This document shows positions 1 through 22,870 of a stretch of 64,000 bases of DNA, one piece after another. Source of the stretch: Deltaproteobacteria bacterium (GTDB lineage Bacteria; Myxococcota_A; Polyangia; Fen-1088); the NCBI GenBank assembly GCA_033763315.1, contig JANRKS010000032.1:1-64000 (forward strand). Reading direction: 5' to 3'. The position numbers and the translations under genes are program-made. The first letter of the stretch is position 1, and each line of letters begins with the position of its first letter. The notes under the pieces are model-generated. The model was not told the DNA's origin and did not search any database. It saw only the letters and a list, made by a program, of their open reading frames with translations.

Positions 1-121
1 AAGGTACATGCTGCATAGGTTTCCGTATCAGTTGATCTACCGATTGCTTGGAGAACAGGTTGTTGTCCTCGCGTGCTTTCACGGCCGCCGTTCTCCGAAG
101 CGGTCCAGTTCGCGACTGTGA
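1..121 (+). CDS. 3' end of a RelE/ParE-family toxin (partial, starts before the window); integron cassette ORF
   Basis: Frame 2 reads RYMLHRFPYQLIYRLLGEQVVVLACFHGRRSPKRSSSRL* (TGA 119-121). FPYxxxY...VLAxxHxRRxP is the typical ParE C-terminus. An attC follows immediately. Confidence 0.75.
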   Translation, partial: RYMLHRFPYQLIYRLLGEQVVVLACFHGRRSPKRSSSRL

Positions 122-122
122 T

Positions 123-253
123 GGCTAACCCGGCCTTCAAGTCTGTCGAAGCCATGAACGTCAGTTTGAACCTAGACACGTCAGTTGTTGGCGGGCAACA
201 ATGCGGTCTTGGCCGTTAGTGGGCTTCGCAGCTTAAGGCCAAGCACGTTAGAC
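123..253 (+). mobile_element. attC site 1 (131 bp)
   Basis: R'' GGCTAAC (123-129), L boxes CCTTCAAG and GCTTAAGG, R' GTTAGAC (247-253). Shares the core GTCAGTTTGAACCTAGACAC with the next site. Confidence 0.9.
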
Positions 254-266
254 CGACGAGAAGTGA

Positions 267-752
267 ATGAGCTACGACATCACACTCTTGAAGCCACCCG
301 GAGCGGTGCTTGACGACAATCGCAGATGGGCGCAACACCTGTGCCAGTCCTTCGCCGACCTGGATGACGCGCAGATCGATGTGCGCGCAAGTGCCGACGT
401 CGCCGGTGACGTGGGGATGAGTGAAGGGGACTGGGTGAGCCGTGGAATCGGCGTAATGGTCTGCCGGGTCGGTCAGCCGGACTTCGTCGACATTTCCTTT
501 TGGGAAACGACAGCGGATATTTCGCTCCCGAACTTCCCAGAGCGGGACGCGGCAGAACTACTCGATTCGATCGCGCCGTACGTCGACAGCCTTCGTGCAC
601 TCGGGTTTGTGTTGATCGATCCCCTGTCTGATGAGCCCTGCGACGGCCCTCGGCAAGTTGAGAGGCTCCTCGCCGGTTACAGCCATCGCCAACGCGCGGT
701 CGGAGTCGTCGCTGAACTCGTCGGTGGCGAGGCGCCGGGCCGAAGCAAGTAG
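267..752 (+). CDS. Hypothetical protein, integron gene cassette
   Basis: 161-aa ORF fills the space between attC1 and attC2; ATG is 14 bp after R'. No family recognised. Confidence 0.75.
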   Translation: MSYDITLLKPPGAVLDDNRRWAQHLCQSFADLDDAQIDVRASADVAGDVGMSEGDWVSRGIGVMVCRVGQPDFVDISFWETTADISLPNFPERDAAELLDSIAPYVDSLRALGFVLIDPLSDEPCDGPRQVERLLAGYSHRQRAVGVVAELVGGEAPGRSK

Positions 753-761
753 TTGCATGCG

Positions 762-892
762 GTCTAACCAAGCGTCGAAGGCTGTCAGTGCCGCGAGCGT
801 CAGTTTGAACCTAGACACGACAGTGGTTGGCGAGCGACAGTACGGTCTTGTGACGTTAAGGGGCCCTGCAGCTTAACGCCGACACGTTGGAC
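762..892 (+). mobile_element. attC site 2 (131 bp)
   Basis: R'' GTCTAAC (762-768), R' GTTGGAC (886-892). Same length and core as attC1. CGGTCTAAC (760-768) is the exact reverse complement of GTTAGACCG (247-255). Confidence 0.92.
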
Positions 893-906
893 GGACCAAG
901 GTTGGT

Positions 907-1965
907 ATGGGTCAACATCGACTCTATTGGGTAACGAATCACGAGAGCCCAAACGAGAACTGTTTCGTGGTTGCGCGCAACCCAAAAGAAGCTGCGCGCT
1001 TCGAAGCTGCTCACGTTGGCTCCGATGTACAAAATGTATCGGCGGAGCTCGTGACCGCTCTACCGCCTGCTCTTCTCGAAAAGGCAGAGAAGGAGTTTAG
1101 GCCCGAATCGGGAAGGCAGAAGCCTTGGCCCTGGTATGCCGATCACCACGACATTCCAAAGGCCCTCGGTGCCGAGGAACTCTTTTTGAATGCGAGGCCA
1201 AGTCGAAGGCTGTTTGGACGCAACTATGTGCAGCATGGGCTCTTCGAGGGGCTGATGGGAACACGGCCGGACACTCTCATCCGATCCGTCACGGACCTTC
1301 TCCGGTCGCCGAAGCTAAAGAGGCAATCCAATTGGATGTATCGAGGTCACGCGGATGCAAAGTGGGTTGGTCGATCCGGCATCGATCGCCATCCGCACCC
1401 AACTCCGACGCGTCGGGTGGAGCTTGAGCGAAGGATGTTGACCGAATTCAAGCGCCGGTCGCGCCCGTACCTTCGCGAAATCCCGCGCAACGATTGGGAG
1501 TGGTTGAGCTTAGCGCAGCATCACGGTCTACCCACTCGCCTCCTTGACTGGACATCAAGTCCTCTAGTGGCGCTCTATTTTGCTGTGGCAGAAAACGACG
1601 GCGACCGCGATGCTGCGATTATTGCCTATTGGCGAGATTGGAATTCGGTCGACACGGACGGGCCAGGTCCCCTTGAAACCGATAAGGTTTGTCTTCACGC
1701 GCCCGCCATCATCTCGGATCGCCTGATGGCACAGCACGCATTGCTGACCGCTGAGCCCCCCGTCGAGGACAGGAGCTCTAGCAACGCCGTGGATGCAGAA
1801 ATCGTGAATTTCTACGTGTCGTACAAGCGCATTGCTGCCATTCGTTTTGAGCTGAAGCAACTCGGGATCACCCGCGGCAGCTTGTTTCCGGGCTTGGACT
1901 CGATATGCGCGGACATAGCCACTGATCATGGTTTCAATAAGGCTCGCCGTCCAACCGGGCGTTGA
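907..1965 (+). CDS. FRG domain protein with N-terminal extension, integron gene cassette
   Basis: WMYRGH...WEWLSLAQHHGLPTRLLDWTSSPLVALYFAV...LGITRGSLFPGLD is the FRG family signature. Confidence 0.9.
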   Translation: MGQHRLYWVTNHESPNENCFVVARNPKEAARFEAAHVGSDVQNVSAELVTALPPALLEKAEKEFRPESGRQKPWPWYADHHDIPKALGAEELFLNARPSRRLFGRNYVQHGLFEGLMGTRPDTLIRSVTDLLRSPKLKRQSNWMYRGHADAKWVGRSGIDRHPHPTPTRRVELERRMLTEFKRRSRPYLREIPRNDWEWLSLAQHHGLPTRLLDWTSSPLVALYFAVAENDGDRDAAIIAYWRDWNSVDTDGPGPLETDKVCLHAPAIISDRLMAQHALLTAEPPVEDRSSSNAVDAEIVNFYVSYKRIAAIRFELKQLGITRGSLFPGLDSICADIATDHGFNKARRPTGR

Positions 1966-2142
1966 ACTTCTCGTAGGAAGTCAAGCGGCGGGTAGATCAG
2001 AAAGAACGAGGGGCGCTGGGCACACGAAATCAGCAGGCAAAGCATGGAAGTCGCTTTGAACCTAGACATGGCAGCGTCATGCATGCACCATCTGGTCATG
2101 GCGGTCAGCGAGCTTTGCAGTTGAAGGCCACACACTTTGGGC
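1949..2142 (+). mobile_element. attC site 3, degenerate (about 64-bp insertion; R' mutated to TTTGGGC)
   Basis: R'' GTCCAAC (1949-1955) complements GTTGGAC of attC2. Core TTTGAACCTAGACA at 2055. The 3' end GAGCTTTGCAGTTGAAGGCCACACACTTTGGGC aligns with the family. Confidence 0.75.
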
Positions 2143-2149
2143 AGACTTA

Positions 2150-2608
2150 GTGCGTCCTCCTCTTCGAATCACGTTCGCTTTGCAGGGCGTCCTCGTCGCT
2201 CGCGCTCAGGTAGCGAGCTGCGACGGTTGTGGCGACCGATTGTTCATCCAGAGGAATGTGGTGGTTGATCCGAATGACCAATGTGCCGTTGTCGCAGCCA
2301 GCCTACAGCGATCCCCGGAGCGTCGAGCCAGACCCGTTCCTTTGTTCATATTCCTTCCTGGCCCGTCAGATGCGGGGGATCCCACTGACGTGATTCGCGA
2401 ATACGCGGCTGAGCACGCGGATTCATTTGAGATCCTGTCTGTCCCCGTCGAATTCGCGCGGCTAACTGCAGGTGCTTGCGCCGTCGATGAACTGCCGGCT
2501 CTACTCGGAGTCTTGCGTAACAGAGTGGTGTCGAAGTTGACGGGCGCTTTTACGCCAGCGCATCTCGACCGGTTCACACAAGACGTTCTCCAACTTGCAA
2601 GGGATTAG
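2150..2608 (+). CDS. Hypothetical protein, probable integron cassette
   Basis: 152-aa ORF (GTG start, CxxC motif) directly after attC3, followed by a degenerate R'' (CTGCCAAAC, 2618-2626) matching TTTGGGCAG at 2136-2144. Confidence 0.55.
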   Translation: MRPPLRITFALQGVLVARAQVASCDGCGDRLFIQRNVVVDPNDQCAVVAASLQRSPERRARPVPLFIFLPGPSDAGDPTDVIREYAAEHADSFEILSVPVEFARLTAGACAVDELPALLGVLRNRVVSKLTGAFTPAHLDRFTQDVLQLARD

Positions 2609-2629
2609 GTGTTGCAGCTGCCAAACAGC

Positions 2630-2755
2630 ATCTGTAGCGTCGCCCAACGACAAGGCATTTTCTTCTTGTGGCGGCCAATGTTGCGAGATCCCAACGATGA
2701 CATGGTCGCGGAAGTTGCGGTGGCGGCTGGGTGTGATGCAATCATTACCCATAAT
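2630..2755 (+). pseudogene. Internal fragment of a PIN-family toxin
   Basis: ICSVAQRQGIFFLWRPMLRDPNDDMVAEVAVAAGCDAIITHN matches the WRPxLxDPxDD...A...IxTxN segment of putative TA PIN toxins. Both ends are missing. Confidence 0.75.
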
Positions 2756-2882
2756 AGTTTCACCTGTGCTGGCCAACATCTACTTGCACTATGTGCTGGA
2801 TCTATGGTTCCACAAAGTTGTGGTTAGACGAATGTGTGGTGAGGCTTGTCTCGTTCGTCACGCAGATGATTCTGTTTGCGCT
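2754..2882 (+). pseudogene. Fragment of a group II intron reverse transcriptase/maturase (RT4-RT5)
   Basis: IVSPVLANIYLHYVLDLWF...ACLVRHADDSVCA: the post-PQG motif SPxLANIYL plus a decayed YADD (HADD). Confidence 0.85.
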
Positions 2883-2935
2883 TGGGGTTTTTGTGCCTCG
2901 GTGGGCACCGCAGCTTAGGCCCAATCACATTAGCC
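2883..2935 (+). mobile_element. 3' half of an attC site (R' mutated to ATTAGCC)
   Basis: GGGCACCGCAGCTTAGGCCCAATCACATTAGCC aligns with GGGCTTCGCAGCTTAAGGCCAAGCACGTTAGAC of attC1. Confidence 0.65.
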
Positions 2936-3355
2936 AGACTGGCGTGGACCGAGCCGGGCCAGATGCAGTTTGATCGGTATCAGGCGGGCATACCGAGAAA
3001 AGTCGCCATCGGTGGTCAGAATCGGCAGCTTTCGACGAACCGCGACTGCACAAATCAGGAAGTCGATCGTAGATCCCTGAATCCCCTTGGCTCGACAACG
3101 ATTGAAGAGTGCGGCCGCCTCTTCATGATCTGCGGTTTCTGTAGGGAGGTCGACGAAACCAAGCAAATGATCACGAAGCGATTGGAACTGCTTTGCATCT
3201 TTGATTCCCGATAGAAGTTCTTGGCGGACAAGACCAAGCATGACGACCCTGCCTTCGCGGATCAGCTCTGCAAGCTCAAGTACGGCCGTTCCACTAGGAA
3301 CTTTGGATCGGCGAAGGGCCAGCGACCAAACCGATGTGTCGACGATAACGTTCAC
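2930..3355 (-). CDS. vapC: VapC PIN-domain toxin (type II TA)
   Basis: VIVDTSVW...ELLSG...IDFLI...ILTTDGDF carries the PIN acidic tetrad; 4-bp overlap with the antitoxin gene. Confidence 0.92.
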   Translation of the reverse strand: MNVIVDTSVWSLALRRSKVPSGTAVLELAELIREGRVVMLGLVRQELLSGIKDAKQFQSLRDHLLGFVDLPTETADHEEAAALFNRCRAKGIQGSTIDFLICAVAVRRKLPILTTDGDFSRYARLIPIKLHLARLGPRQSG

Positions 3356-3552
3356 GATCGTTGACGGGCCCGCTTGTAGTCAAACTTCGGATCGAAGTCG
3401 AGTTTGCCGAAAAGGTTTACAACCTTAGCCTGTTTTCGACGCTGAATGTATTCCTCTAGCGCTTCCGTTACAGTGTCTTTCTTCGTTCGATGCCCGCCTA
3501 TACGCAGCGCCTCCTCAAGAAGGCCTTCGTCTATTGCCAAGTTGGTCGCCAT
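3352..3552 (-). CDS. vapB: VapB-type antitoxin (ribbon-helix-helix)
   Basis: MATNLAIDEGLLEEALRIGGHRTKKDTVTEALEEYI...FDYK. Start reassigned to the ATG at 3552. Confidence 0.9.
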   Translation of the reverse strand: MATNLAIDEGLLEEALRIGGHRTKKDTVTEALEEYIQRRKQAKVVNLFGKLDFDPKFDYKRARQRS

Positions 3553-3587
3553 GTGTGAAATTATACACATGGCGAGGTGGGTCGCAA
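3546..3587 (-). promoter_or_regulatory. vapBC promoter with overlapping operator palindrome
   Basis: Minus strand TTGCGA-16-TATAAT ending 7 nt before the ATG. A perfect 11-bp inverted repeat TCGCCATGTGT (3546-3556) / ACACATGGCGA (3565-3575) flanks the -10 box. Confidence 0.75.
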
Positions 3588-3693
3588 ACAAGGCGCGGAC
3601 GTCACTGTGAACCCAGACATGGCAGTGGAGTGCAGGCGACAATGGGGTCTTGGGCGTTAGCGAGCTTTGCGGCTTAACGCCGACACGTTGGGA
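3583..3693 (+). mobile_element. attC site, 5' part damaged or shortened
   Basis: GTCACTGTGAACCCAGACAT core, then GGTCTTGGGCGTTAGCGAGCTTTGCGGCTTAACGCCGACACGTTGGGA (R' 3687-3693). R'' is degenerate (CGCAAAC) and the site is about 20 bp shorter than attC1/2. Confidence 0.75.
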
Positions 3694-3702
3694 GACAGCA
3701 TC

Positions 3703-4332
3703 ATGACGGAGGCAAAGTTCGATAAGGAGTTTTGGGAGCAGCTGTGGTCAAAGACGGTCCGCGATCACGCCGACAGAGTCGCTCGTCGTCCACCAAACGC
3801 GCATCTAGTGGCCGAGACTGCCGACCTTCCTCCGGGACGCGCTCTCGACGCGGGCTGCGGTCACGGCGCAGAGACGCTCTGGCTCGCGATGCGCGGCTGG
3901 CAGGTCACGGCCGTCGACTTCTCTGCTTCGGCGCTGGCCCACGGCCGGTCGATGGCGGAATCTGCAGGCGCTGAAGTTGCCGACAGAGTTAACTGGATAC
4001 AGAGCGATCTATCGACCTGGGTGGTGCAACCGGCGCACTACAACCTAGTTGTCTGCTTGTATGTCCACGTGAGCGGTTCCGTGGAGCACATGGTGGGGCG
4101 GATGGCGGGTGGCGTCTCTCCGGGAGGAACTTTGATCTTGGTCGGACACCGCCCGCTTGATCCTATCACCGGAGCTGCGACCGCTGCGGCAAACCAGGTG
4201 CAAGTCTCCGTCGACGCTGCGGTCGCGGCGCTCGACCCAAAAGCCTGGGAGTTGGTCGTCGCAGAAGAGCGTCCGCGTGCCGTTGCCGGTACCGGGGTCG
4301 ATGCCGTGATCCGCGCCCGCCGGCGGATCTGA
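3703..4332 (+). CDS. Class I SAM-dependent methyltransferase (last cassette; no downstream attC seen)
   Basis: PGRALDAGCGHG...GWQVTAVDFS motifs I/II. ATG at 3703 with GGAG supplied by the end of the attC. Confidence 0.9.
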   Translation: MTEAKFDKEFWEQLWSKTVRDHADRVARRPPNAHLVAETADLPPGRALDAGCGHGAETLWLAMRGWQVTAVDFSASALAHGRSMAESAGAEVADRVNWIQSDLSTWVVQPAHYNLVVCLYVHVSGSVEHMVGRMAGGVSPGGTLILVGHRPLDPITGAATAAANQVQVSVDAAVAALDPKAWELVVAEERPRAVAGTGVDAVIRARRRI

Positions 4333-4541
4333 GGCGGATCGAACTCGACGCACTTCTTCGGGCGCGCTTTCCTGATGCAAGCTTTCACGACTCCGACTTG
4401 CGTTCGAATGCAATCGGCGCACTTTGCGGCGACCGAGGTCCGTTTTTTCTTGGACTGATGGCAGCTCGATGTACCTCCTTTTGACGTGGCGCACCCAGAG
4501 GCCGCCGCGCCGCCCGGCTGAAGTGCTTAAAGTAGATTGAT

Positions 4542-5693
4542 GTGTTTGCTGCTAAGCGCTACTCTGCGGCCACGATGGAAGAAATCAGCCGCCCGCAGCC
4601 GACCGACGTGAGCCCTAGCTCAACCCAGCAAGACATAGAACCGCGACGCTTGCCGATGCAGTTCACTGGAACGGCCAGCGAATACTTTCGCATTTGGATC
4701 GTCAACATTGCTTTGAGCATCGTTACGCTCGGGATTTATTCTGCGTGGGCGAAGGTCCGCACAAAGAACTATTTCTATAAGCACACCGTTCTCGACGGAT
4801 CATGCTTTGAGTACCACGCGGTGCCGCGCCAGATCTTGAAGGGGCGCATCATCGTTGCCGCGTGTTTGGCGGCAGTGTTCATCGCGAAGATCTACTCATT
4901 GCAGTTGTACGCGGCCGGGCTTGTGGTGTTGTTTGCCATCTCGCCCGCCATTATGGTCATGGCGCTGGCATTCAACGCCCGCAATTCATCGTATCGCAAC
5001 GTTCGCTTTGCTTTTGATGGAACCGTGAAGTCAGCCTACAAGGCTTACCTTATCGGCCTGGCCGTCTACATTTTCACAATTGGCTTGGGTTTCCCCTATT
5101 TTCATTGGCGGCTACTTAAGTATGGAATCTCTCATCACCGATACGGGAACCAACGATTCCACTTTCACGCGACGGCCAAACCATTCTTCTCCTTATACGG
5201 CCGCGCCCTGGGGATCCTGATTATCTCTATCGTCACGATGTTTGTGCCTATGTTCGTGCTCAAGATTGTGGGTGCAGAGGGACCACTTGTCTTGGTGGTC
5301 CTGACCTACGCCATCATGTTTTTATTGGCTGGTTACCTCAAGGCGCGCCAGGCGAATTTGATCTTCGGATCGATCTCCATTTCAGAAGAGGCCACCGCCT
5401 CAATGCAGGACACCGCAACGGAGACCCCTCGCAACGAACACTTCCTGGTGGCCGATCAGAAAGTGGGGCAAGTCATTTGGTTGTTGGTGGGAAACCTCGC
5501 CGGGATCGTGGCCACGCTTGGCTTATTGATTCCTTGGGCGAAGATTCGAACGGCTCGCTACCGCGCGGAACATCTGCACGTTCTGGCCCACGGAGATTTG
5601 GTGGCCACGCGCAGTGGCACGCCCTCACGCAGCGGGCTTGTGGCAGACGCGGCCACAGATCTGGGCGATATTGGATTTGATCTTGGTATCTAG
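4542..5693 (+). CDS. YjgN/DUF898 family inner-membrane protein
   Basis: FTGTASEYFRIWIVNIALSIVTLGIYSAWAKVR signature. The start may be the ATG at 4575. Confidence 0.92.
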   Translation: MFAAKRYSAATMEEISRPQPTDVSPSSTQQDIEPRRLPMQFTGTASEYFRIWIVNIALSIVTLGIYSAWAKVRTKNYFYKHTVLDGSCFEYHAVPRQILKGRIIVAACLAAVFIAKIYSLQLYAAGLVVLFAISPAIMVMALAFNARNSSYRNVRFAFDGTVKSAYKAYLIGLAVYIFTIGLGFPYFHWRLLKYGISHHRYGNQRFHFHATAKPFFSLYGRALGILIISIVTMFVPMFVLKIVGAEGPLVLVVLTYAIMFLLAGYLKARQANLIFGSISISEEATASMQDTATETPRNEHFLVADQKVGQVIWLLVGNLAGIVATLGLLIPWAKIRTARYRAEHLHVLAHGDLVATRSGTPSRSGLVADAATDLGDIGFDLGI

Positions 5694-5703
5694 CGATTCG
5701 ACT

Positions 5704-6753
5704 GTGAACGAAGAGTCATTGCAGATCACGGGGCACTTCTTCGACGGCCTGTCATCCCGCCCCCACCGGGTGGTGGTGACAGCTGGAGCTGACGGCCTTC
5801 GCATTGCGTTCTCGGACGCAACCCCTGCGCAAGCCGAACGGGCTTACGCCAAGGATCAAGTTGAGATCGGCACGCGTTTGGGAAACACGCCCCGCTCACT
5901 TTCATTCAATGATGGCGCGAAGGTTGAAAGTGCCGACAACGACACCATTGATCGGTTGTCGGCCGTTTGGGGAGCGCGCGCGTCAACGGTTCACCGCCTA
6001 GAATCGAACTGGCGTGTTGTCATCGGGGCTGTTGCGCTTATCGCGCTTTTGGCGTGGTCTGGCTTTGTTTGGGGTGTACCGTGGGCGGCCACGCGGGTGG
6101 CGATGGCTTTGCCGGACAAAATGGCCGAGCACATAGGAAAAGGCACGTTGGCCGCGCTCGACAAGCTGTTATTCGAGCCCTCCACCGTGAACTCCGAACG
6201 CAGAAAAGCGGTGGAGCAATCGTTCACAAGTTTGGCCTCCGCCTATCCAGAGTTGTCACTTCGTTTGAATTTTCGAAAGCTGGGTGTTCCCAACGCCTTC
6301 GCTCTTCCCGACGGAACCGTTGTGGTGACAGATGAGCTGATTGAGATCGCGAAAACAGATGACGAGGTTTTGGGCGTGTTGGCTCACGAAATCGGCCACG
6401 TGAAACACAGGCACGCGTTACGCATGACGCTGGAAGCTTCAGCGGTCGGGCTCTTTTCAACCGTGGCCTTCGGTGATGCCGCTCAGGCCAGCGCGCTCTT
6501 TGCGGGCTTGCCTTCGTTCTACGCGAACGCACAGTATTCGCAGGTGAAGGAATCGGAAGCCGATGGATTTGCGATCGTTCTGATGCAACGTTTGGGGCTG
6601 CGCCCCGCAGCGTTGGCAGACATCCTTGAGCGGATGACCGAAGAAAGGGGGGACACGGAGCGTGAAATCCCGCAGTACTTTTCAAGCCACCCCTCGACCC
6701 AATCGCGCATGGCACGTTTGCGCGCGGCTTCGGCAGGCGGCTCAGCAAGATAG
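5704..6753 (+). CDS. M48 family metallopeptidase
   Basis: NAFALPDG, HEIGH (HExxH), ESEAD and SSHP motifs; usual partner of DUF898. GTG start at 5704. Confidence 0.92.
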   Translation: MNEESLQITGHFFDGLSSRPHRVVVTAGADGLRIAFSDATPAQAERAYAKDQVEIGTRLGNTPRSLSFNDGAKVESADNDTIDRLSAVWGARASTVHRLESNWRVVIGAVALIALLAWSGFVWGVPWAATRVAMALPDKMAEHIGKGTLAALDKLLFEPSTVNSERRKAVEQSFTSLASAYPELSLRLNFRKLGVPNAFALPDGTVVVTDELIEIAKTDDEVLGVLAHEIGHVKHRHALRMTLEASAVGLFSTVAFGDAAQASALFAGLPSFYANAQYSQVKESEADGFAIVLMQRLGLRPAALADILERMTEERGDTEREIPQYFSSHPSTQSRMARLRAASAGGSAR

Positions 6754-6808
6754 TGGGAGGCTGTCCTCACAGCGCCCCGCGAATGAAGAAGGGCGCGCAT
6801 GCTAACGT

Positions 6809-8716
6809 GTGAGTCTGCTCATGCGACTCTTGCTGCTCACGCCGCCCATGGTTCAGCTAAACACGCCCTATCCCGCAACGGCGTATTTGACGGGCTATCT
6901 GCGTCAGGCTGCACCGGCGTGGCAGGTGAGCCAAGCCGATCCCGCGATCACCTTGTTTCTGCGGGTGTTTTCGCGGCGAGGCCTGACGGATGTGGCGCGC
7001 GTCTTGGCACAGCACGCCCAGCCGACGGCGCGTGTTGTTGCATTCGTGCAAAACGCTGATCGGTATATCAACACAGTGGACGCCGCGGTTCGCTTCCTTC
7101 AGGGCCGCGATCCGTCGCTGGCTTTGCGGATTGAGAGCCGAACATTTCTTCCCGAAGGCTCACGGTTTGCGGCCCTCGATGAAACTGCAGACACAATGGC
7201 GTGGGCGTTTGGGGCGCTGGGCACCGCCGACAAAGCCAAGCATTTGGCAAGCCTTTACATCGACGACGTCGCGGACGTTGTGCGCGAAGGTCTCGACGCG
7301 CGCTTTGAATTGTCGCGGTATGCAGAATCACTGGCCAGCAGCGCGCCCACGTTTGACCCCCTTGATGAAGCGTTGGGGGCGCCCCCGTCACTCATAGATT
7401 CGTGGCTTGATGACATCGCTCGCGAACTTGTGGCCCAGCACGCGCCTGACGTCGTTGGCATCACCGCTCCGTTTCCGGGCAATGTGTATGGCGCCTTTCG
7501 CATAGCACGCGCCATTAAAGAGGCCTCGCCTCACACAAAGCTTGTGCTGGGTGGCGGGTATGTGAACACGGAACTACGTGATCTAAGCGAGCCACGGGTG
7601 TTTGAGTATTTCGACTACATTACGCTTGATGACGGCGAGCGCCCCTTGCTGGCGCTGCTTGAACATCTGCAATCACGTGGCAGCACACCGCTGTTTCGCA
7701 CGTTCGTGCGCGAAGGCGGCCGGGTTGTCTACAAGAGCAACCATGAGATGCACGACGTGCCCCACCGTGACACGGGCGTGCCGACGTACGACGGATTGCC
7801 CCTGAACGATTATCTATCGTTGTTCGAGATGCTCAACCCCATGCACCGTTTGTGGTCGGACGGGCGTTGGAACAAGTTGACGGTGGCACACGGCTGCTAC
7901 TGGAAAAAGTGCAGCTTCTGTGATGTGACGCTCGATTACATCAGCCGGTACGATGCGGCCAGCGCTGACGTGCTGGTGGATCGCATTGAATCGCTTGTGG
8001 CAGAAACGGGACAAACAGGCTTTCACCTTGTTGATGAAGCCGCCCCACCCGCAGGCCTGCGCGCCTTGGCTGAACGTTTGCTCGCACGCGACGTTGTGAT
8101 CACATGGTGGGGCAACATTCGGTTTGAAAAGACGTTCACGCCCGAGCTCGCGCAGTTGCTGGCACGCTCGGGCTGTGTGGCCGTCAGCGGTGGTTTGGAA
8201 GTGGCATCTGATCGCTTGCTCAAGCTTATGCAAAAAGGCGTGACGGTGGAACAAGTGGCGCGCGTCACCAAGGCGTTCGCGGACGCCGGGATTATGGTTC
8301 ACGCTTACCTGATGTATGGCTTTCCCACCGAGACGATGCAGGAAACCATCGATTCACTCGAACGCGTGCGACAGTTGTTTGAGCAAGGCTGCTTGCAATC
8401 TGCCTATTGGCACCGCTTTGCTGCCACCGCCCACAGCCCCATTGGCAAGCAACCCGACGCGTTCGGCATTCGCTTGCGCCCTCCACCCGCGGTCACTTTC
8501 GCGCGCAATGAACTGCCGTTCGAAGATCCCACGGGTTGTGATCACGACTTCCTTGGCCATGGGTTGCGCAAGGCGCTTTACAATTACATGCACGGCCTGG
8601 GGTTCGAGGTGGATTTGCGGTCGTGGTTTGGCACGCCCCGCGAGCGACGCGCCGCCAACGTTCCGAACCCCCAGGTGCCACGCGATTTGGTGCAAAAGGC
8701 GCTGCAAGCGCTTTAG
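6809..8716 (+). CDS. B12-binding domain / radical SAM protein
   Basis: CYWKKCSFC (CxxxCxxC), N-terminal B12-binding-like region, VDEAAPP and AYLMYGFP. Confidence 0.88.
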   Translation: MSLLMRLLLLTPPMVQLNTPYPATAYLTGYLRQAAPAWQVSQADPAITLFLRVFSRRGLTDVARVLAQHAQPTARVVAFVQNADRYINTVDAAVRFLQGRDPSLALRIESRTFLPEGSRFAALDETADTMAWAFGALGTADKAKHLASLYIDDVADVVREGLDARFELSRYAESLASSAPTFDPLDEALGAPPSLIDSWLDDIARELVAQHAPDVVGITAPFPGNVYGAFRIARAIKEASPHTKLVLGGGYVNTELRDLSEPRVFEYFDYITLDDGERPLLALLEHLQSRGSTPLFRTFVREGGRVVYKSNHEMHDVPHRDTGVPTYDGLPLNDYLSLFEMLNPMHRLWSDGRWNKLTVAHGCYWKKCSFCDVTLDYISRYDAASADVLVDRIESLVAETGQTGFHLVDEAAPPAGLRALAERLLARDVVITWWGNIRFEKTFTPELAQLLARSGCVAVSGGLEVASDRLLKLMQKGVTVEQVARVTKAFADAGIMVHAYLMYGFPTETMQETIDSLERVRQLFEQGCLQSAYWHRFAATAHSPIGKQPDAFGIRLRPPPAVTFARNELPFEDPTGCDHDFLGHGLRKALYNYMHGLGFEVDLRSWFGTPRERRAANVPNPQVPRDLVQKALQAL

Positions 8717-14924: not shown

Positions 14925-17357
14925 TCACACGCGCTTCGCCACCACTTTGACGGTTTGGCCCGCTTTCGCTGAGGGCACAACCAACCCATCGATGGCTTCG
15001 CCGTTCACTTCAAGCTGCCAACGTGTGCCACCGTTGTTCTCAATCTTGATCTCAAAGGTGGCGCCACGCCACTTGCGGCGCACGTTCGCGTCCTTGATCT
15101 CCGCTGGCAAACACGGCTCAACCCGCAGACCTTCGTTGTCGGGACGCACGCCCAGAATGTGTTGAGCGATGGCCACGAAGTTCCAGGCGGCTGTGCCCGT
15201 AAGCCACGAGTTCTTCGCTTCTCCGTGTCGCGCGGCCGCCTTGCCAGCGATCATTTGCGAATACACGTAAGGCTCGGTGCGGTGGACCTCACTTATCTCC
15301 TCGAGGTAAGCGGGGGCGATCTGGCTCCAGTACTTAAAAGCGCGATCGCCGCGGCCCAATTTCGTTTCTGCTATCACGATCCACGGGTTGTTGTGGCAAA
15401 AGATGCCCGCGTTCTCTTTATAGCCAGGTGGGTAAGACGAAATCTCCCCCAGCTCTTTGTGGTATTCGGCGTAAGGCGGATCTTGCAGCACGATGCCGTA
15501 CTTTGTGTTCAATCGCTCGTTGACGGCATCAAGCGCCCGTTTGGCGAAACCATCTTCGATGCCCTGGCCGCCCATGATGCACCAGCCTTGGGATTCGATG
15601 AAGATCTGGCCATCTTTGTTCTCGGCGCTGCCGATTTTCTTGCCGAAGAAGTCATAAGCGCGTAGGAACCAATCTTTGTCGCGGCCGTGCGTGTCGATCG
15701 CCCTGCGCATGTTGACGATGTGTTGTTCGGCGGCCTGTGCCTCGGCTTCATGCCCGCGTGCGCGCAGGATGTGAACGAAGTCGGGCCCAATGGCCACAAA
15801 CATGCCCGCGATCATCAGCGATTCCGCCGTGCGGCCGCTGCGGTTTTGCGTGGTCTGGAACGATTCGTCAGGCTTTTCCGAGAAGCAGTTCAAATTGAGG
15901 CAATCGTTCCAGTCGGCGCGGCCAATGAGCGGCAGTCCGTGGGGGCCCAGGTTTTCGATCACGTGGCCGAACGAGCGGCGCAGGTGTTCAAGCAGCGTGC
16001 CGCCTTTGCTGGCGTCGTGGTCAAACGGCACCTGCACATCCAAAATGGCATCGTCGCCTGTTTCGCGCATATACGCCATGACGCCTGAGATCAGCCACAA
16101 GGGATCGTCGTTGAAGCCGCTGCCGATCTCGTCGTTGCCGCGTTTGGTGAGCGGCTGATATTGGTGGTAAGCGCTGCCGTCGGCACGCTGGGTGGCCGCG
16201 ATGTCCAAGATGCGCTCGCGGGCGCGTTCGGGGATCATGTGCACCACGCCCAAGAGATCTTGGTTCGAATCGCGGAAGCCCATGCCGCGGCCAATGCCCG
16301 ATTCAAAGAACGAGGCGCTGCGGGACATGTGGAACGTCACCATGCACTGGTATTGGTTCCAAATGTTCACCATGCGGTCGAGGCGCGGATCGCTTGACGA
16401 CACTTGGTAATTGGAAAGCAACTCATCCCAGTGGGCGGCCAGAGCGGCGCGCGCTTGCGCCACTTGCGCGGGCGTCGAGAACTTTTGCGTGAGCGCTTCG
16501 GCGCGCTGCTTGTTGATCACGCCTGGAGCGGCCCACTTCTCGGCCACGGGGTTCTCCACGTAGCCCACGATGAAGATGAGCGACTGCGTTTCACCGGGCG
16601 CCAGGTTCAACGTGACTTGGTGTGCGCCGATGGGGGACCAGCCGCTGGCGACCGAGTTACGGCATTCGCCTGCCAGCACCGCCTGGGGCTCGTGTAATCC
16701 GTTGTAAAGGCCAACAAACGTTTCTCGATCTGTGTCGAACCCGGTGACCGCGCGGTTCACGTGAAAGAAGGAATAGTGGTCGCGGCGTTCACGGTATTCG
16801 GTCTTGTGGTAAAGCGTGCTGCCACCGTTGGCCACTTCCACTTCACCGGTGCTGAGGTTGCGTTGAAAATTGGTGGAATCGTCAAGCGCGTTCCACAAGC
16901 AGAATTCAACGAACGAGAACAGTTCAACCTTCTTGGCCGACGTCGTGCGATTCTCCACGGTGAACTCGCACACTTCAGCGGTGGCGCCCAACGGAACGAA
17001 GAAGTTTGCTGTGGCGCGCAGGCCGTTGCGCTCTCCGGTGATCTTTGTGTATCCCAAGCCATGACGGCATTCGTAAAAGTCGAGCGGCTTTTTCATCGGC
17101 ATGAACGTGGGCGTCCATGCATCGTCACCGTCGCGCAGATAGAAGTATCGGCCACCCATGTCGGCCGGCACGTTGTTGTAGCGAAAGCGCAGCAAACGCC
17201 GCAGACGGGCGTCGCGGTAAAAGCAATAGCCCGCAGCTTGGTGCGAGATCAGCGAGAAGAAATTCTCTGAACCAAGATAGTTGATCCAGGGATAAGGGGT
17301 CTTGGGCGTGGTGATGACGTATTCGCGGTTGGCGTCGTCGAAGTGACCAAACTTCAT
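14925..17357 (-). CDS. cbp: Cellobiose phosphorylase (GH94), cytoplasmic
   Basis: [39 protein letters not shown], catalytic [21 protein letters not shown] and [10 protein letters not shown]. No signal peptide. Confidence 0.93.
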
Positions 17358-17408
17358 GGGCGTGTGCTTTCTTCGTTGCGGGGGACCATCATACAGAACG
17401 CGTGAGCG

Positions 17409-19616
17409 CTAACGAGCGGCGCGGGATTTTGCGGCCGCCTTGCGGGCGGGGGCTTTGCCAGCCGGAGCTTTGCCAGCCTTTTTTGCGGGAATGCCTTGGG
17501 GGTAAAGCCAAGCCAGTGTGGCGTTGGATAAGGCGATGTCGGCCTGAGCCCAAAATCGGTGGTAACGGAACTCGGGGGCAGGGCCGCCGGAAAGGTAAGC
17601 TTGCACCTTTGACCAATCCGGATCTTGGCGGTACTTGGAGCGCAGTGACAGGAATGTTGAACTTGAATCGATCTTGTCGCCGTTCGGCATCTTGCCGTCA
17701 AAGCCCGTGGGCACATACACGGAATCATTGAAGCGCTTGTAGTCACCGCGCGCTTCGGGACTCGAGATGCCTTTGTTCGTTCGGTAAAGCTTCCACATCC
17801 GATCCAGCAGCTCTTGCCCGAGCTTCGAAACCTCATGCCGGCCTGACTTTGCTCCGTAATAAATGAGCGTGCGTGCGTAAGTTGACGTCACACCCACGTC
17901 TTGCGTGTAATCCACCACCTTGACGTGCAGACCTTCGTTCCACTTCTTATCGGAGCCGTTCCAATTCTGGTGTTCTTTGTCCCAGTTGGCGCCGGGTTGT
18001 CCTTCCCAATTCAACGTCGATGGGATCTCGTAGCTGCCGTTCGCAAGCAGCTTGGTGTGCGCCGTGGCCCAGGCCACCCACTTGTCCAACAGCGTTTTGG
18101 CCTTTTCATCGCCTGTGAGCCAATAAAGCGCGGCCGTGCGTTCAATGCCCCACACCTGAAAACCGAACCATTGGTTGCTTGGGGGATCTTCCCACACAGG
18201 CTTTTCAACGTAGGGCATCTTGTAAAACGTTGTGGTGCCAGCGGGCGGCTGCGCGTAGCGCCCCATCCAGCTGTTGGTCACGCCGCCGGCGATCGCCCCT
18301 TCGGAGGATTGCAGATAGCGCAGCATCTCCAGCTGGCGATCAAAACTTGTGGCCCAATCGCTGGCGCCTGTTTTCGACGCGGGCTTAAACGCTTCCACGT
18401 GTGACATCACGTAAGCCGTAAACGGGTTTTGATATCCCTGGTGGCTGGTGCTGGAGCCAATGCGCCAACTCCATCCACCGCTCTTCGAGAGCGATCCGCC
18501 CCATGCGTAGTACCAAGAGATAAGGTAGTGCGCCGACTCGCGGCCTTGCCCCGGCGTGCACGAAGGCGTCGTGCATCCCAGTGCCTTGAAGTACTTATCG
18601 AAGAACGCGTATCGCAAAAAGTCGCCCATTTTGGCGCCCTTTTTGACCAAGCCATCGACCGCTGCGTTGCCGCCTTTGTCGTCGGCCCAAGCTTTGGCCC
18701 AATAAAGTGCCTGAATCGCACGCGCGTCAGCGTCGGGCGCGTTGGTGTATTTCCATTGCTTGGCGTAGCCGCCGTCTTGCTTGACGAACAGATCCAAGAA
18801 ACCCGATTCGCCGCCCCAATCAAATGATTCCCATGACGGCTGCGGGATCGTTTCCCACACCGACTCCTGCATGCCACGCTGAAACGTGTTGATATACGAA
18901 GGCTTCGAAACACCATCGCTGCGGCGACCAAAACCATAAAAATTATCGACGTCCATCAGCCAATGCATGCCGTAAACGTACGGCTCGCCATACGTTTCCA
19001 GCAGCTCTTTCCACAGCGGATCCCATCCCGGTGTGGCCGCGTTCTCCATTGGGCTTGGGTATTGCCGCGGATCATCCAGCTCGGGTGCGAACACCGCGGG
19101 ATGCGTGTAGTTGTAAGAGCCGGCCGTGGGTTGATCATCCTTGGTGGGGATGATGTACGTCTCCATGCTTTTCCACGATTGCTCAAGCGGCTTCCAATCG
19201 CCGGTCAAACGTCCGTAAGCCGATTCAAGCCAGATCCAGTAGCTGTAGGCCTCCGAAGTGGTTTCATGCCCGTAGTCGGGTGCCTCAACGATCAACGTCT
19301 CCGGGCTGTGGTAAGGAACGCCTTCAGCGCTAAAGTATCCATTGCGCGTGTCGTGCACATCGCTCCACAGCTCAGCGAAGCGATCAAGGTACACGTTGCC
19401 GGTTTTGCCAGGGTGGCGCGTGAATGAAGGCAAGGGCGCCGTGGGAAACGACGCGGGCCCTTCGTTATCGTCGGCCACCGTTTTGGATTTGGCCTTCGAC
19501 TTTGCGACCTTGTGCTTCTTCGCGCGCCGCGGCCCGGCGGTGGTGGGCATGCAAGCGCTGCCCCCGAACGCAACCAGCAATCCGACGCCCAGACCCAAAC
19601 CCAAAAAGCGTTTCAC
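17409..19616 (-). CDS. GH48 processive cellulase, predicted lipoprotein
   Basis: EAPDYGHETTSEAYSY, MHWLMDVDN, INTFQRG.QESVWET, YTNAPDADARA and YHRFWAQ. Lipobox-like GSAC. Confidence 0.95.
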   Translation of the reverse strand: MKRFLGLGLGVGLLVAFGGSACMPTTAGPRRAKKHKVAKSKAKSKTVADDNEGPASFPTAPLPSFTRHPGKTGNVYLDRFAELWSDVHDTRNGYFSAEGVPYHSPETLIVEAPDYGHETTSEAYSYWIWLESAYGRLTGDWKPLEQSWKSMETYIIPTKDDQPTAGSYNYTHPAVFAPELDDPRQYPSPMENAATPGWDPLWKELLETYGEPYVYGMHWLMDVDNFYGFGRRSDGVSKPSYINTFQRGMQESVWETIPQPSWESFDWGGESGFLDLFVKQDGGYAKQWKYTNAPDADARAIQALYWAKAWADDKGGNAAVDGLVKKGAKMGDFLRYAFFDKYFKALGCTTPSCTPGQGRESAHYLISWYYAWGGSLSKSGGWSWRIGSSTSHQGYQNPFTAYVMSHVEAFKPASKTGASDWATSFDRQLEMLRYLQSSEGAIAGGVTNSWMGRYAQPPAGTTTFYKMPYVEKPVWEDPPSNQWFGFQVWGIERTAALYWLTGDEKAKTLLDKWVAWATAHTKLLANGSYEIPSTLNWEGQPGANWDKEHQNWNGSDKKWNEGLHVKVVDYTQDVGVTSTYARTLIYYGAKSGRHEVSKLGQELLDRMWKLYRTNKGISSPEARGDYKRFNDSVYVPTGFDGKMPNGDKIDSSSTFLSLRSKYRQDPDWSKVQAYLSGGPAPEFRYHRFWAQADIALSNATLAWLYPQGIPAKKAGKAPAGKAPARKAAAKSRAAR

Positions 19617-19622
19617 GTGCGG

Positions 19623-20354
19623 TTACTCCTCGCAGCCAACGAACTCGATGTCGTCGATCCAAATGTCGTAGGTCGCGCCCGGCGCCTGCGCTTGAAATTG
19701 CAGGCCATACACCTGTGATTTGTCGATCCGGCGTGGCCTAGGGCTGCCCCAGCCTTCCATCTGCTTCATCTTGGCGAAGGGCAGAACGTACTTCTTCCAG
19801 CTGTCTGTCAAGACAATGTCGGCGCCGAAGTCGTTGAAGCATTCCTTGCAGATGCCGGCCTCCGAATCGGTGTTGACGTCGGGCACCTTCACGCGAATGT
19901 TGGCGAGGCCACCCGGACCCTTCTTCGCCCAGAACGAAATGCCACCATATTTGGAAGCGTCGTAGGCGTCTTTGGGATCGGTGAAGTTCATGCCCACGGC
20001 GCCGAAGATCACGGCGCCTGAGCCCAAGGTGCCATGCACACGCGCCGCGAACTTCGAATTGTTCGCGCCGCCTTCGGACTGCGTGAACACACCGCCTTGC
20101 GAACCGGCCGGTGGATCAACGGTAGAGCCCGCCTCGTCCACGTACGTGTACCAATAGCCGCCGCGCCCATCCACAACGGCGGTTTGGTTGTTGTTGTCTT
20201 CCATGTTGTCGATGAGGCCTTCGTCGCCGCACGACGTTTCCACTTCGGCGGAAGCCTTCGACACCGCCTTTTGTCCGGGCGTCACACAGCCCGCGGCCGT
20301 GAACGCAACGCTAAGGGAAGACGACAAAACAAAGACGAGCGACTTTCGGTTCAT
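19623..20354 (-). CDS. Lipoprotein with a stand-alone carbohydrate-binding (CBM11/CIA30-like jelly-roll) domain
   Basis: Lipobox AAGC; GGYWYTY..., YDASKYGGISFWAK, WKKYVLPF and YDIWIDDIEF form a galactose-binding-like fold pattern. Confidence 0.75.
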   Translation of the reverse strand: MNRKSLVFVLSSSLSVAFTAAGCVTPGQKAVSKASAEVETSCGDEGLIDNMEDNNNQTAVVDGRGGYWYTYVDEAGSTVDPPAGSQGGVFTQSEGGANNSKFAARVHGTLGSGAVIFGAVGMNFTDPKDAYDASKYGGISFWAKKGPGGLANIRVKVPDVNTDSEAGICKECFNDFGADIVLTDSWKKYVLPFAKMKQMEGWGSPRPRRIDKSQVYGLQFQAQAPGATYDIWIDDIEFVGCEE

Positions 20355-20375
20355 GGGTAATGCTTTCCTGTGGTG

Positions 20376-22847
20376 TTATCGCTTGGCGGGACGCGCGGTT
20401 TTGGCCTTGCCTTTGGCGGGCGCGGCGGCGGCTGGTGCGGCTTTGCTGGGCGGTGGTGTGTGGCTGTGATCGTCAAGGAACGCGGTGACCCAAGCGAAAG
20501 GGGCGTTCCAGTTGATCGTGATCTCGTTGGCTGACCAGGCTTCGATGTTGTCAACGAAACACTTTTCAGCCGCGCAGCCAGCGAGTCCCGCCGCCTGCAC
20601 ATAAGGATCTTCGAGGCCTGAGTTCGGGCCGCCCGAAACCGCACCGGGGGGCGCCTTGGGGAAGCGCTTGTCAACTTGGTAGGACCAAAAGCGGTGGTGC
20701 GGGTTCACAAGCGGTCGATCGCCGTAGCCTGTGACATAGCTTTGATCCATGGCGTTGCGGCCGAGGATGTAATCCATGCCCTGTGCGACGGCATCCAGAT
20801 ACTTGCGGTCATTGAGATGTTCGTACGCCACACCCAACAGCAACAAGTTGTTGTTGATGAACGAGTTTGATCCCCAGGGCGCTTTGTTCGTGTTGCCGTA
20901 GCTCATGGGCACGCGGTAGCCGCGCTGTTCGATGAGTTGCACGTAAGCGTTCGCGGCTTCGCGCAGCGATTCCTCCGCGCGCTTGCGATCGGCGGCCGAA
21001 AGGGGCGCCGGATTGGTGAGCAACGATAACGTCCCCAGCGCGCCTGTGTCTTGCCACGTCAAGGGGCTTGGAATGCCTGCTTCTTTCGCGTCTTTGAGGT
21101 ACGCCGAAAGCTTAAGGTAGTTGGGAGACCGTGTGGCGGCGTCTTTGTATTCGCCTTTGCCTGTGGTGATCCACAATTCGGCAGCGGCCCAATAGAACTC
21201 ATCTTCGACGTGATCATCGTCATAGGGGCCACCACCCAAACCGCCCGGCTTGGCGAACATCGCTGGGTGTTTTTGTGCGGCCTCATAGGCGCGAACGCTG
21301 GCGTCTAAACAGCGTGCGGAGAATTCTGGGTCCAACGTTTTCCAGATGCGTGCCGCTTGGGCTGCCGTGGCGGCCAAATTCAAAGTGGCTGCCGTGCTCA
21401 CCGGGTAAAGGAACCGCGGCATCGGATCGTCTTGCGGTGCCAAGCCCAGCGCGGTCCATTCTTTGTCGTGAATCTTGTGATGCACCATGCCCGCCATGTC
21501 GTTGCCATCGGGCACCTGCATTTTCAGCATGAATTCGAGGTTCCAGCGCACCTCATCCAAGAGATCCGGCTTGCCGTTGCCCTTCTCTGGAATGTTCATG
21601 GTGCCGTCTTCAAGCGGCTTGGTGTTCTTGGTGACGAACTTGGAGCGCTCCCACAAGTTCATGAGCGTCCAAACAGATACACCGCCGTTGACCACGTACT
21701 TGCCGTGATCGCCTGCGTCGTACCAGCCACCAGAGACATCCAGCTTGTAGTCACACTTGGCAGCCGGGGCACAGGGAACTTCCTTGTCAGAAAGATGTCC
21801 CGCGGGGCGGGTCAGTTCCTTCTTGCCCGCGTAGGGTAGCTTGATCTCGGTGCCGCTGCGGTTGTGGTAGTAGTACGCCAGCGCGTCGTAGCGCATTTTG
21901 CTGTAGATCTCGGGCGAAATATCAAACGGATGGCTTTTTTCGTTTGAGACTTCCAACACGAAGTCTTTGCCCGTGCCTGCGAAGGCGCTGAAGTTGATCG
22001 TGTGTGTGTTGTCGCCCGAAGGCGCGTCGCGGCCAACCACATTTGTCTTGCCCGTCAGGACTTCGCGGCCGCCGGCGTCTAACAACCGCCAAGCCAAAGG
22101 TTCGCGGGCGTCGGTCCGTACCGTGGCGTATTTCGCCAATCCAGGCAGATATCCCGTTTGATTCACCAACACAGCGGGAGGCGCGTCGGGGGCTGCTTCC
22201 TCTTTGCGGGTAAAATCGGGATCGAGCAGCTGCACGTCGTCAATGCACACCCGGAAAGGTTCGGGCACCTTGTAGGCCAAGTTGCCGCCCACGTGAAACG
22301 AGAACTCCGCGGTGGGATCGTTCTCGGAGGTCATACGGAAGCTGCCCTTGAAGGTGCGCGGCGTGGTGTCGAGTTTGAGCGTATCGACCCAATATTCACG
22401 GTAGGGCGGGCCTTGCTGGCCCACCTTGGCACGCATGCGCGTTTGCGCTGAAGCGTAGGCCTTGAACGTGACGTCGTACGAGCGGCCACGTTGGATCGTC
22501 ATCTCGCGGTGGCGCAGCTGCGCGTCCCAGTTAGACGCGCCTTTGTTCTTCACGTTGATACACAACGCGCCGTCGACGATCTCCGCATTGCCGTCGCCTG
22601 GTGCCGTGAACGACACCGTCCACGGCAAGCTTGTGCCATCGTTGAACGTGGCGTTGGCGATCAAGTTATTGGGTGAGATCGCCTTGTCTTTGCCGGTATA
22701 GGCCGCCTGGCCGGGCACGCCTTTGGATTTCCACTTGCGCCCGCCGGCTTTGCCGCCACCGGCCTTTCCCCCGGAAGAGACGCACGCCGCGTGCGAACAC
22801 AGCAGCGCAACACAAACAACAGACAACTTCGACGCAGACGCCTTCAT
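20376..22847 (-). CDS. GH9 cellulase with N-terminal CBM4/9 and Ig-like domains, predicted lipoprotein
   Basis: CBM4-like NWDAQL...CIDDVQL, VLVNQTGYLP, GGWYDAGDHGKY, NPHHR and NEITINWNA. Lipobox-like HAAC. Start ATG 22847 (alternative 22880). Confidence 0.95.
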   Translation of the reverse strand: MKASASKLSVVCVALLCSHAACVSSGGKAGGGKAGGRKWKSKGVPGQAAYTGKDKAISPNNLIANATFNDGTSLPWTVSFTAPGDGNAEIVDGALCINVKNKGASNWDAQLRHREMTIQRGRSYDVTFKAYASAQTRMRAKVGQQGPPYREYWVDTLKLDTTPRTFKGSFRMTSENDPTAEFSFHVGGNLAYKVPEPFRVCIDDVQLLDPDFTRKEEAAPDAPPAVLVNQTGYLPGLAKYATVRTDAREPLAWRLLDAGGREVLTGKTNVVGRDAPSGDNTHTINFSAFAGTGKDFVLEVSNEKSHPFDISPEIYSKMRYDALAYYYHNRSGTEIKLPYAGKKELTRPAGHLSDKEVPCAPAAKCDYKLDVSGGWYDAGDHGKYVVNGGVSVWTLMNLWERSKFVTKNTKPLEDGTMNIPEKGNGKPDLLDEVRWNLEFMLKMQVPDGNDMAGMVHHKIHDKEWTALGLAPQDDPMPRFLYPVSTAATLNLAATAAQAARIWKTLDPEFSARCLDASVRAYEAAQKHPAMFAKPGGLGGGPYDDDHVEDEFYWAAAELWITTGKGEYKDAATRSPNYLKLSAYLKDAKEAGIPSPLTWQDTGALGTLSLLTNPAPLSAADRKRAEESLREAANAYVQLIEQRGYRVPMSYGNTNKAPWGSNSFINNNLLLLGVAYEHLNDRKYLDAVAQGMDYILGRNAMDQSYVTGYGDRPLVNPHHRFWSYQVDKRFPKAPPGAVSGGPNSGLEDPYVQAAGLAGCAAEKCFVDNIEAWSANEITINWNAPFAWVTAFLDDHSHTPPPSKAAPAAAAPAKGKAKTARPAKR

Positions 22848-22870
22848 GTGTGTCACGCTTTGCTTGCTGG

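Follow-up and report, generated by a model that had tools for sequence, protein, structure and literature searches.

A sedentary chromosomal integron cassette array whose long attC family is genus-specific, from an uncultured Polyangia-like member of the Myxococcota

We analysed a 64,000-nucleotide (nt) stretch of DNA (the window) that forms the first 64 kb of contig C32 (655,588 bp), in an assembly of 7.63 Mb and 40 contigs (completeness 90.85%, contamination 4.1%). Because the window opens the contig, position 1 is a contig end. From there to position 3695, short open reading frames (ORFs) are interspersed with five copies of a long repeat resembling attC, the recombination site of integron cassettes, and a first-pass annotation had read the region as an integron cassette array. 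The features of the array and of its boundary are given below; R'' and R' denote the left and right box of a site, and CM its score under a covariance model of the repeat family.

1..118, + strand: 3' end of a cassette ORF, truncated by the contig end, with weak likeness to a ParE toxin (Pfam ParE_toxin E 0.019, 16 bits, cut-off 23)
121..255, + strand: attC site 1, intact (R'' 121-129, R' 247-255; CM 126.1 bits)
267..752, + strand: cassette 1 ORF, 161 amino acids, of no family (no Pfam, NCBIfam or PADLOC match; in Atlas, hypothetical-protein clusters only)
760..894, + strand: attC site 2, intact (R'' 760-768, R' 886-894; CM 120.1 bits)
907..1965, + strand: cassette 2 ORF, 352 amino acids, with an FRG domain (Pfam FRG 2.9e-29; PADLOC PDC-S15 8.2e-61, 203.8 bits)
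1947..2144, + strand: attC site 3, a 194-nt variant (R'' 1947-1955, R' 2136-2144; CM 70.5 bits at 2013-2147)
2150..2608, + strand: cassette 3 ORF, 152 amino acids, no family found
2663..2755, + strand: C-terminal remnant of a PIN-domain gene (Pfam PIN_3 2.2e-7, profile positions 81-113 of 115)
2754..2876, + strand: remnant of a group II intron reverse transcriptase (49% identity over 41 amino acids to the intact reverse transcriptase (RT)-maturase of the intron in the C16 array)
2886..2941, + strand: attC site 4, 3' fragment only (nhmmer E 2.2e-4, hidden Markov model positions 93-146; missed by the CM)
2930..3355, - strand: vapC, PIN toxin of a toxin-antitoxin pair (Pfam PIN 1.7e-14; NCBIfam TA_toxin_VapC 95.2 bits, cut-off 80)
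3352..3552, - strand: vapB antitoxin (Pfam VapB_antitoxin 1.6e-18)
3584..3695, + strand: attC site 5, left arm and left box missing (CM 60.1 bits over model positions 24-114; nhmmer 1.3e-27)
3703..4332, + strand: S-adenosylmethionine (SAM)-dependent methyltransferase (Pfam Methyltransf_25 3.5e-14), beginning 8 nt past the R' 9-mer of site 5

A direct-repeat search, an alignment and two rounds of nhmmer placed all five sites where the first-pass annotation had put them, on the + strand within 117-3695. Sites 1 and 2 each measure 131 nt from 7-mer to 7-mer (123-253 and 762-892), and their box 7-mers, GGCTAAC/GTTAGAC in site 1 and GTCTAAC/GTTGGAC in site 2, fit the pattern RYYYAAC...GTTRRRY. The AAC and GTT are invariant in 22 of the 22 full sites aligned. 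Site 3 has additional sequence following its left arm and an R' that reads TTT, not GTT, and the R' of site 4 reads ATT, again not GTT. The shared internal core, TTGAACCTAGACA, was confirmed as exact at 166, 805 and 2056 and is present at 3607 with 2 mismatches; these four matches (at most 2 mismatches) compare with 0.48 expected, and 1 of 100 shuffles reached four. The 9-nt complements at the cassette ends proved exact as well, GTTAGACCG (247-255) pairing with CGGTCTAAC (760-768) and GTTGGACGG (886-894) with CCGTCCAAC (1947-1955). Site 2 R'' agrees with site 1 R' at all six variable positions, and both neighbour pairs of the window are perfect. A full-sensitivity scan of the 64 kb with the family covariance model returned four significant hits, all on the + strand within 118-3673, with the next hit at E 0.026.

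The array had been drawn over 1..4332. This span stands as far as 3695, where site 5 is the final recognisable attC of the array; the remainder, 3703-4332, is the methyltransferase gene, and the covariance-model scan of the window found no attC 3' of it. Homologues of the methyltransferase occur patchily, in 3 of 25 relatives and in neither congener, and in those 3 relatives no attC adjoins them. The gene is possibly a terminal cassette. Within the array, the FRG protein of cassette 2 matches the PADLOC candidate defence family PDC-S15, and it is therefore a candidate phage-defence gene borne as an integron cassette. The vapBC pair makes up cassette 4, on the strand opposite to the array, and the PIN remnant at 2663-2755 shows 58-61% identity to a stretch of the integron array of the congener G001.

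For the bottom strand of site 1, the computed fold (-30.7 kcal/mol, z score -4.55) is a long imperfect hairpin in which an internal loop separates the box helix from an arm that has three single-base bulges, with a terminal structure beyond it. The bulges lie on the R''-side (3') arm of the bottom strand, and the identity of the first-bulge base differs among family copies, as judged by eye from the alignment. For the 22 full sites, RNAalifold predicted the arm helix with compensatory changes. In a hand-drawn structure of 34 pairs over the same sites, 84.3% of cells were paired, against 27-44% when the partner was slid; the arm helix itself was 91.6% paired, with compensatory, two-sided change in 7 of its 15 pairs.

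Genome-wide, we found 35 copies of the family at E<0.01, and 34 of them fall into six clusters, each confined to a single strand:

C32:117-3694 (the window)
C40:34-4859
C39:14209-11611
C27:1397-126
C16:97727-111151
C1:311319-311462

The contigs are 113-655 kb long and carry myxobacterial genes. Spacings within clusters are mostly 420-860 nt and stay within about 4 kb, and the arrays are tandem and one-stranded, mostly with one short ORF per unit in the array direction. Among the cassettes of the other arrays, 14 of 26 ORFs lack a Pfam family, and the rest include toxin-antitoxin parts, GNAT, methyltransferase and a GyrI-like protein. The two long gaps of the C16 array hold a group II intron and a 511-amino-acid reverse ORF, respectively. 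This intron is intact and lies on the opposite strand (L009:5741-7560, that is C16:100740-102559, -), with Rfam matches of 92.3 bits for D1-D4 and 58.4 bits for the D5 region in addition to the RT-maturase ORF. A seat for it within an attC was ruled out, since no site adjoins it. The lone family copy outside the arrays is at C23:133101-133241(-).

Neighbouring cassettes were compared across 32 sites, 6 without a left box and 3 without a right box, with the weak hits C40:3024 and C40:3852 and the solo C23 copy omitted. Boxes were taken by position (on the left the 9-mer that closes with AAC, on the right the one that opens with GTT), and their six variable positions were compared. Of 18 neighbour pairs, 8 gave a perfect match of the left box to the right box one site earlier (mean 5.06), as against 3 of 23 (mean 4.0) for a site's own right box and 4.1% (mean 3.35) for 709 non-neighbour combinations. 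The observed values were reached in 0 of 20,000 permutations. Such a match between neighbours is the signature expected of cassettes that had once been circular and were cut between the G and TT of the right box. The underlying scheme of cassette recombination is restated in passages of PMC12614218 and PMC4889954.

A single integron integrase scored above cut-off in the genome, at C27:4341-5552(-) (TIGR02249, 440.9 bits versus 265). Residues 51-360 of this IntI align with PDB 2a3v, the Vibrio IntI4 (E 1.4e-84), and the alignment takes in the IntI-specific stretch, whereas an adjacent plain tyrosine recombinase leaves that stretch unmatched and matches TIGR02249 in two pieces. IntI shares its strand with the three attC sites of C27, so it reads toward its array. 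Between the C27 intI and the attC sites lies an IS91-type module composed of a tyrosine recombinase (3320-4249) and a Y2 transposase (2130-3302); this module (C27:2130-4249(-), Zn_Tnp_IS91 and Y2_Tnp) sits directly past the putative attI crossover and before the first attC. The array may have been separated from its leader by this insertion. The insertion does not account for the co-oriented layout, because intI followed by same-strand sites is also seen in G001 and seven further relatives. G001, the more contiguous congener, has at least 26 + strand sites after its intI (C5:611396-612334(+)), spread over 33 kb and reaching 645851. Among the rows listed, the arrangement is present in the genome studied here (G000) and in 8 relatives: G001, G003, G004, G010, G012, G016, G023 and G024.

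Orientation was also followed on an IntI tree of 78 rows, the product of a quick search in which an ordinary recombinase served as outgroup. One 30-row clade (SH-aLRT, a likelihood-ratio branch test, 95) takes in all 8 co-oriented rows and none of the 9 divergent ones; the orientation labels cover loci where the family-specific attC model found sites, and the tree omits the labelled loci L051, L061, L043, L040, L091 and L081, which gave no single clean alignment. When the family-only model was checked on foreign intI loci, it found 58 sites in 18 of 74. All 58 are canonical: in 5 loci they lie downstream of intI on its own strand, and in 13, many of which belong to Lysobacteraceae, they are upstream and on the other strand. 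None of the 74 loci has model sites in either non-canonical arrangement.

Across the family to which this genome belongs, both intI and shorter attC sites occur widely. An IntI match at E<=1e-60 was found in 17 of 24 other genomes of the family, and the repeat model matches 20 of 24 family relatives and 2 of 16 genomes outside it, with site counts of 30 in G000, 38 in G001 and 16 in G002. Sites of ~140 nt scoring at least 100 bits (100-132) are found only in G000, its two congeners and, as one site, in G014, and the sites of other genera of the family are ~72 nt. As the long high-scoring sites are limited to the genus apart from that one G014 site, the long repeat is a genus-specific attC family. 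The proposal that homogeneous long attC sites of this kind are typical of sedentary chromosomal integrons holds for this ~140-nt family.

On C27, the conserved IntI domain is followed by a block of ~145 nt that overlaps the ORF's 42-codon tail and ends at ACGTTG. It occurs four times in the genome, and only the C27 copy stands beside intI:

C27:4430-4286, - strand
C16:97149-97293, + strand, at an array head
C1:310740-310884, + strand, at an array head
C4:283-137, - strand (E 1.1e-11 against a profile of the three copies above)

Homology between the copies stops at ACGTTG, with differing sequences beyond: the IS91-type module on C27, the same first cassette on C1 and C16 (85% over 567 nt), and another ORF on C4. 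On C1 and C16, 5 of 6 variable positions at the block junction agree with the left box of the array's first attC. We take this block as a putative attI plus leader, within which no binding boxes could be made out. No remnant of an integrase catalytic domain was detected upstream of the three extra copies (C16, C1 and C4). A search for a counterpart in G001, G002 and other relatives gave no significant hit (best E 0.046), and G001 holds no paralogue of the 900 nt that lie downstream of its own intI. The C16 array is complete, with 14 sites and no integron-integrase match; the only TIGR02249 match on C16 is below cut-off, Xer-like and ~40 kb from the array.

Three heads run off their contigs (C27 and C4 in reverse complement, and C1), and three tails enter theirs (C32, C40, and C39 in reverse complement). 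Reverse-complemented C27 and C1 end in the same 141-mer, and C40 and reverse-complemented C39 start with the same 141-mer. These common 141-nt ends indicate that two arrays have one or more cassette stretches in common, and that the assembly broke there. C4 and C32 are dead ends, and the opening 31-mers of C32 are absent elsewhere in the assembly. The first-pass annotation had put any intI upstream of position 1; the only intI found is the one on C27, and by elimination the window array may be the tail of the C4 head, which lacks one. A link between the window and the C27/C1 array, whose last R' GTTAGCCAG fits site 1 R'' at 8 of 9 positions, was not used because the outgoing cassette opens an unrelated ORF and the box type is common.

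Three public sequencing runs from three studies, each holding a 0.05-0.24 share of the sampled words of the stretch, gave contigs that overlap the array. Record 1 of the first run (X1) covers 1-249 with one difference, and that run also shows a loose end behind 253. In the second run (X2), record 9 covers 1-129 with zero differences, and record 10 covers 135-251, beyond which its next 166 nt differ from the window. In other populations, then, attC 1 and the end of the first cassette appear to have different neighbours just past GTT, which fits cassette shuffling. Record 19 of the third run (X3) covers 1898-1969 and then departs from the window, toward letters read as resembling the family arm and core; on that reading, site 3 of the window would carry extra sequence at ~1970-2035. 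Joints inside repeats (for example 127 to 2055) were rejected as deletions, being cross-matches between family members.

Sedentary chromosomal integrons with species-specific long attC sites are known from the Vibrio cholerae superintegron, with its V. cholerae repeats (VCRs), and from Xanthomonas arrays. Similar to these, the integron described here is chromosomal, has homogeneous attC sites of ~130 nt conserved in sequence and shape within one genus, and holds tens of cassettes of mostly unknown function, some of them toxin-antitoxin systems; its IntI aligns full-length to the Vibrio IntI structure 2a3v. Unlike them, it belongs to another phylum, its IntI is co-oriented with the cassettes where theirs is divergent, its sites are spread over several arrays, and these have a core of their own. 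Spirochaetes, cyanobacteria, planctomycetes and Chlorobi have integrons of an inverted-integrase type, and the integron studied here shares with these the order of intI and then downstream same-strand attC sites, whereas its host belongs to an uncultured Polyangia-like family. Judged by gene order, its layout corresponds to the group that is named the inverted integrase group in a passage of PMC3575428.

Passages of Cury et al. 2016 (PMC4889954) define clusters of attC sites without an integrase as CALIN, describe CALIN in genomes with an IntI elsewhere as common, state that most integrons have no known attI and that it is not searchable, and link attC homogeneity to array size. The C16 array, and possibly that of the window, resembles a CALIN in having no integron integrase nearby and an IntI elsewhere in the genome. 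Unlike the CALIN of Cury et al., three integrase-less heads here bear a paralogue of the post-intI sequence, the putative attI. Within the Myxococcota, the annotation's view that integrons are little studied is borne out in part. Literature searches on integrons in Polyangia and on IntegronFinder results in Myxococcota, supplementary tables aside, brought up no account of this attC family or of several attI leaders. The phylum has nonetheless been surveyed: the portion of a 2026 preprint considered here (10.64898/2026.09.14.751636) applies IntegronFinder to 3,229 myxobacterial genomes and counts 192 complete integrons. Additionally, a passage of Ghaly et al. 2021 (PMC8352920) lists a Deltaproteobacteria attC model among those for 11 taxa, an archaeal-integron preprint has Myxococcota among the phyla whose attCs match archaeal ones, and a section of a study of sul4 (PMC12772301) reports an integron integrase in a Myxococcota metagenome-assembled genome. 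The relevant passages of PMC13616975 report no cassettes in the authors' own sequenced myxobacterial isolates, which contrasts with the frequency of IntI in this family (17 of 24 relatives). Many phyla are known to have chromosomal integrons, and those of Myxococcota are already catalogued, so the find is fairly ordinary. It is a clean, well-supported example, from an uncultured lineage resembling Polyangia, of a sedentary chromosomal integron whose long attC family is genus-specific, and it leaves the known picture of how integrons work unchanged.

Taken together, these results make it very probable that the host, an uncultured member of the Myxococcota, has a chromosomal integron and that window positions 1-3695 form the distal (oldest) end of its cassette array, and we class the element as a sedentary chromosomal integron of the inverted-integrase type. 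The attC assignment draws on the RYYYAAC/GTTRRRY ends, the covarying hairpin with bulges, the one-strand arrays of short ORFs, the match between neighbouring boxes and the presence of an IntI in the genome. A unit would consist of a promoterless gene followed by its attC, whose single-stranded bottom strand would fold into an imperfect hairpin that IntI recognises by shape. Recombination of attC with attC by IntI would excise cassettes as circles, and these would be re-inserted at attI with the crossover between G and TT. Because of excision as a circle and re-insertion at that point, the left box of a cassette would pair with the terminal right box of the cassette preceding it. The attC sites of this family presumably recombine. 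Sites 1 and 2 appear to be the sole recombination-competent sites of the window, which would leave only cassettes 1 and 2 still mobile; sites 3-5 lack the crossover G or the left arm, so that cassettes 3 and 4 have probably become immobile. The reverse-oriented vapBC may help to retain the segment, a role ascribed to toxin-antitoxin cassettes in large arrays.

Several observations weigh against this interpretation. Three of the five window sites are defective (TTT in site 3, ATT in site 4, no left box in site 5), and the array has no physical link to intI, as C32 ends at position 1 and overlaps no other contig. Taken singly, sites 2 and 5 fold no better than shuffles (z +0.41 and +0.09), and the support for structure comes instead from the family alignment, in which the 34-pair structure was drawn partly from site 1 and the slid controls are to that degree in its favour. 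The evidence from public runs consists of short contigs, from runs with the low word shares given above, and an Rfam scan of 1-8000 returned nothing relevant. A rival possibility is that the segment is a dead relic, a fossil array end without any cassette exchange. The missing G of GTT in sites 3 and 4, the missing left arm of site 5 and the gene debris of PIN and reverse transcriptase at 2663-2876 are what such a relic would display. We nevertheless consider it unlikely, as sites 1 and 2 are undamaged, with scores equal to the best in the genome, and in other runs attC 1 is followed by different sequence, which points to recent reshuffling there in related populations. Far less probable still is a dispersed palindrome unrelated to integrons, of the kind of a repetitive extragenic palindrome (REP) or miniature inverted-repeat transposable element (MITE). 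The repeat is indeed an imperfect palindrome of ~130 nt and has its solo copy on C23, but the scattering that the first-pass annotation had named as evidence for such an element is absent, with 1 of 35 copies solo and none in window positions 3700-64000. The one-strand arrays of the other 34 copies, the complementarity of neighbouring boxes, the box motifs, the genomic IntI and the arrays directly past intI in eight relatives (among the rows listed) contradict it.

The position of the window array within the genome is more evenly balanced. We see an even chance that it is separate from the intI-linked integron, as the tail of an integrase-less array (a CALIN) with its own putative attI leader, likeliest that of C4, and with IntI acting in trans. 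The four copies of the putative attI block, the complete C16 array without an integron-integrase match, and the contig ends, where C4 and C32 are both left as dead ends and the other heads and tails share 141-mers, all speak for this arrangement. It depends, however, on bookkeeping in an assembly that is 90.85% complete and from which contigs below ~1.5 kb were seemingly dropped. Moreover, the first cassette of C4, GTTGGCCGG, mismatches the R'' of window site 1, ATGGCTAAC, so more cassettes would be needed between the C4 head and the window. A bolder and rather doubtful extension is a multi-headed integron, in which one IntI would serve four array heads with attI leaders (C27, C16, C1 and C4) and the window would be the tail of one of them. 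If this were true, cassettes could be captured in trans at several chromosomal loci, and 'integrase-less arrays' would be functional platforms, not debris. The fourfold putative attI leader is the one feature deserving follow-up, since four paralogous putative leaders offer a handle on how integrase-less arrays arise and on whether one IntI feeds several platforms.

Beyond the array, ordinary genes begin at 4542 with DUF898, an M48 peptidase and a B12 radical SAM enzyme. Immediately past the array (4542-6753), there is an 80-nt overlap between the gene of the DUF898 membrane protein and that of the M48 peptidase, which has a DUF7092 domain. The congeners share a single gene of this flank, the radical SAM gene at 6809-8716 (72-74% identity). 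With the queries used, neither the DUF898 nor the M48 gene was found beside the radical SAM gene in the regions examined from the two congeners, and there is no attC at the radical SAM locus in the congeners. As only this gene is conserved and no attC accompanies it there, synteny gave no placement for the array. The rest of the window encodes cellulases (GH48, GH9, GH94), several Ser/Thr kinases and an FHA-sigma54 activator, and the top matches of a conserved helicase (55-63%) come from Myxococcales, Polyangia and Myxococcota genomes. This gene content and the helicase matches agree with the annotation's description of the host as myxobacterium-like. The cellulose-degrading enzymes form a cluster at 14928-22910 on the - strand (GH94 cellobiose-phosphorylase-like, GH48, and GH9 with CBM4_9), which fits a cellulolytic myxobacterium.

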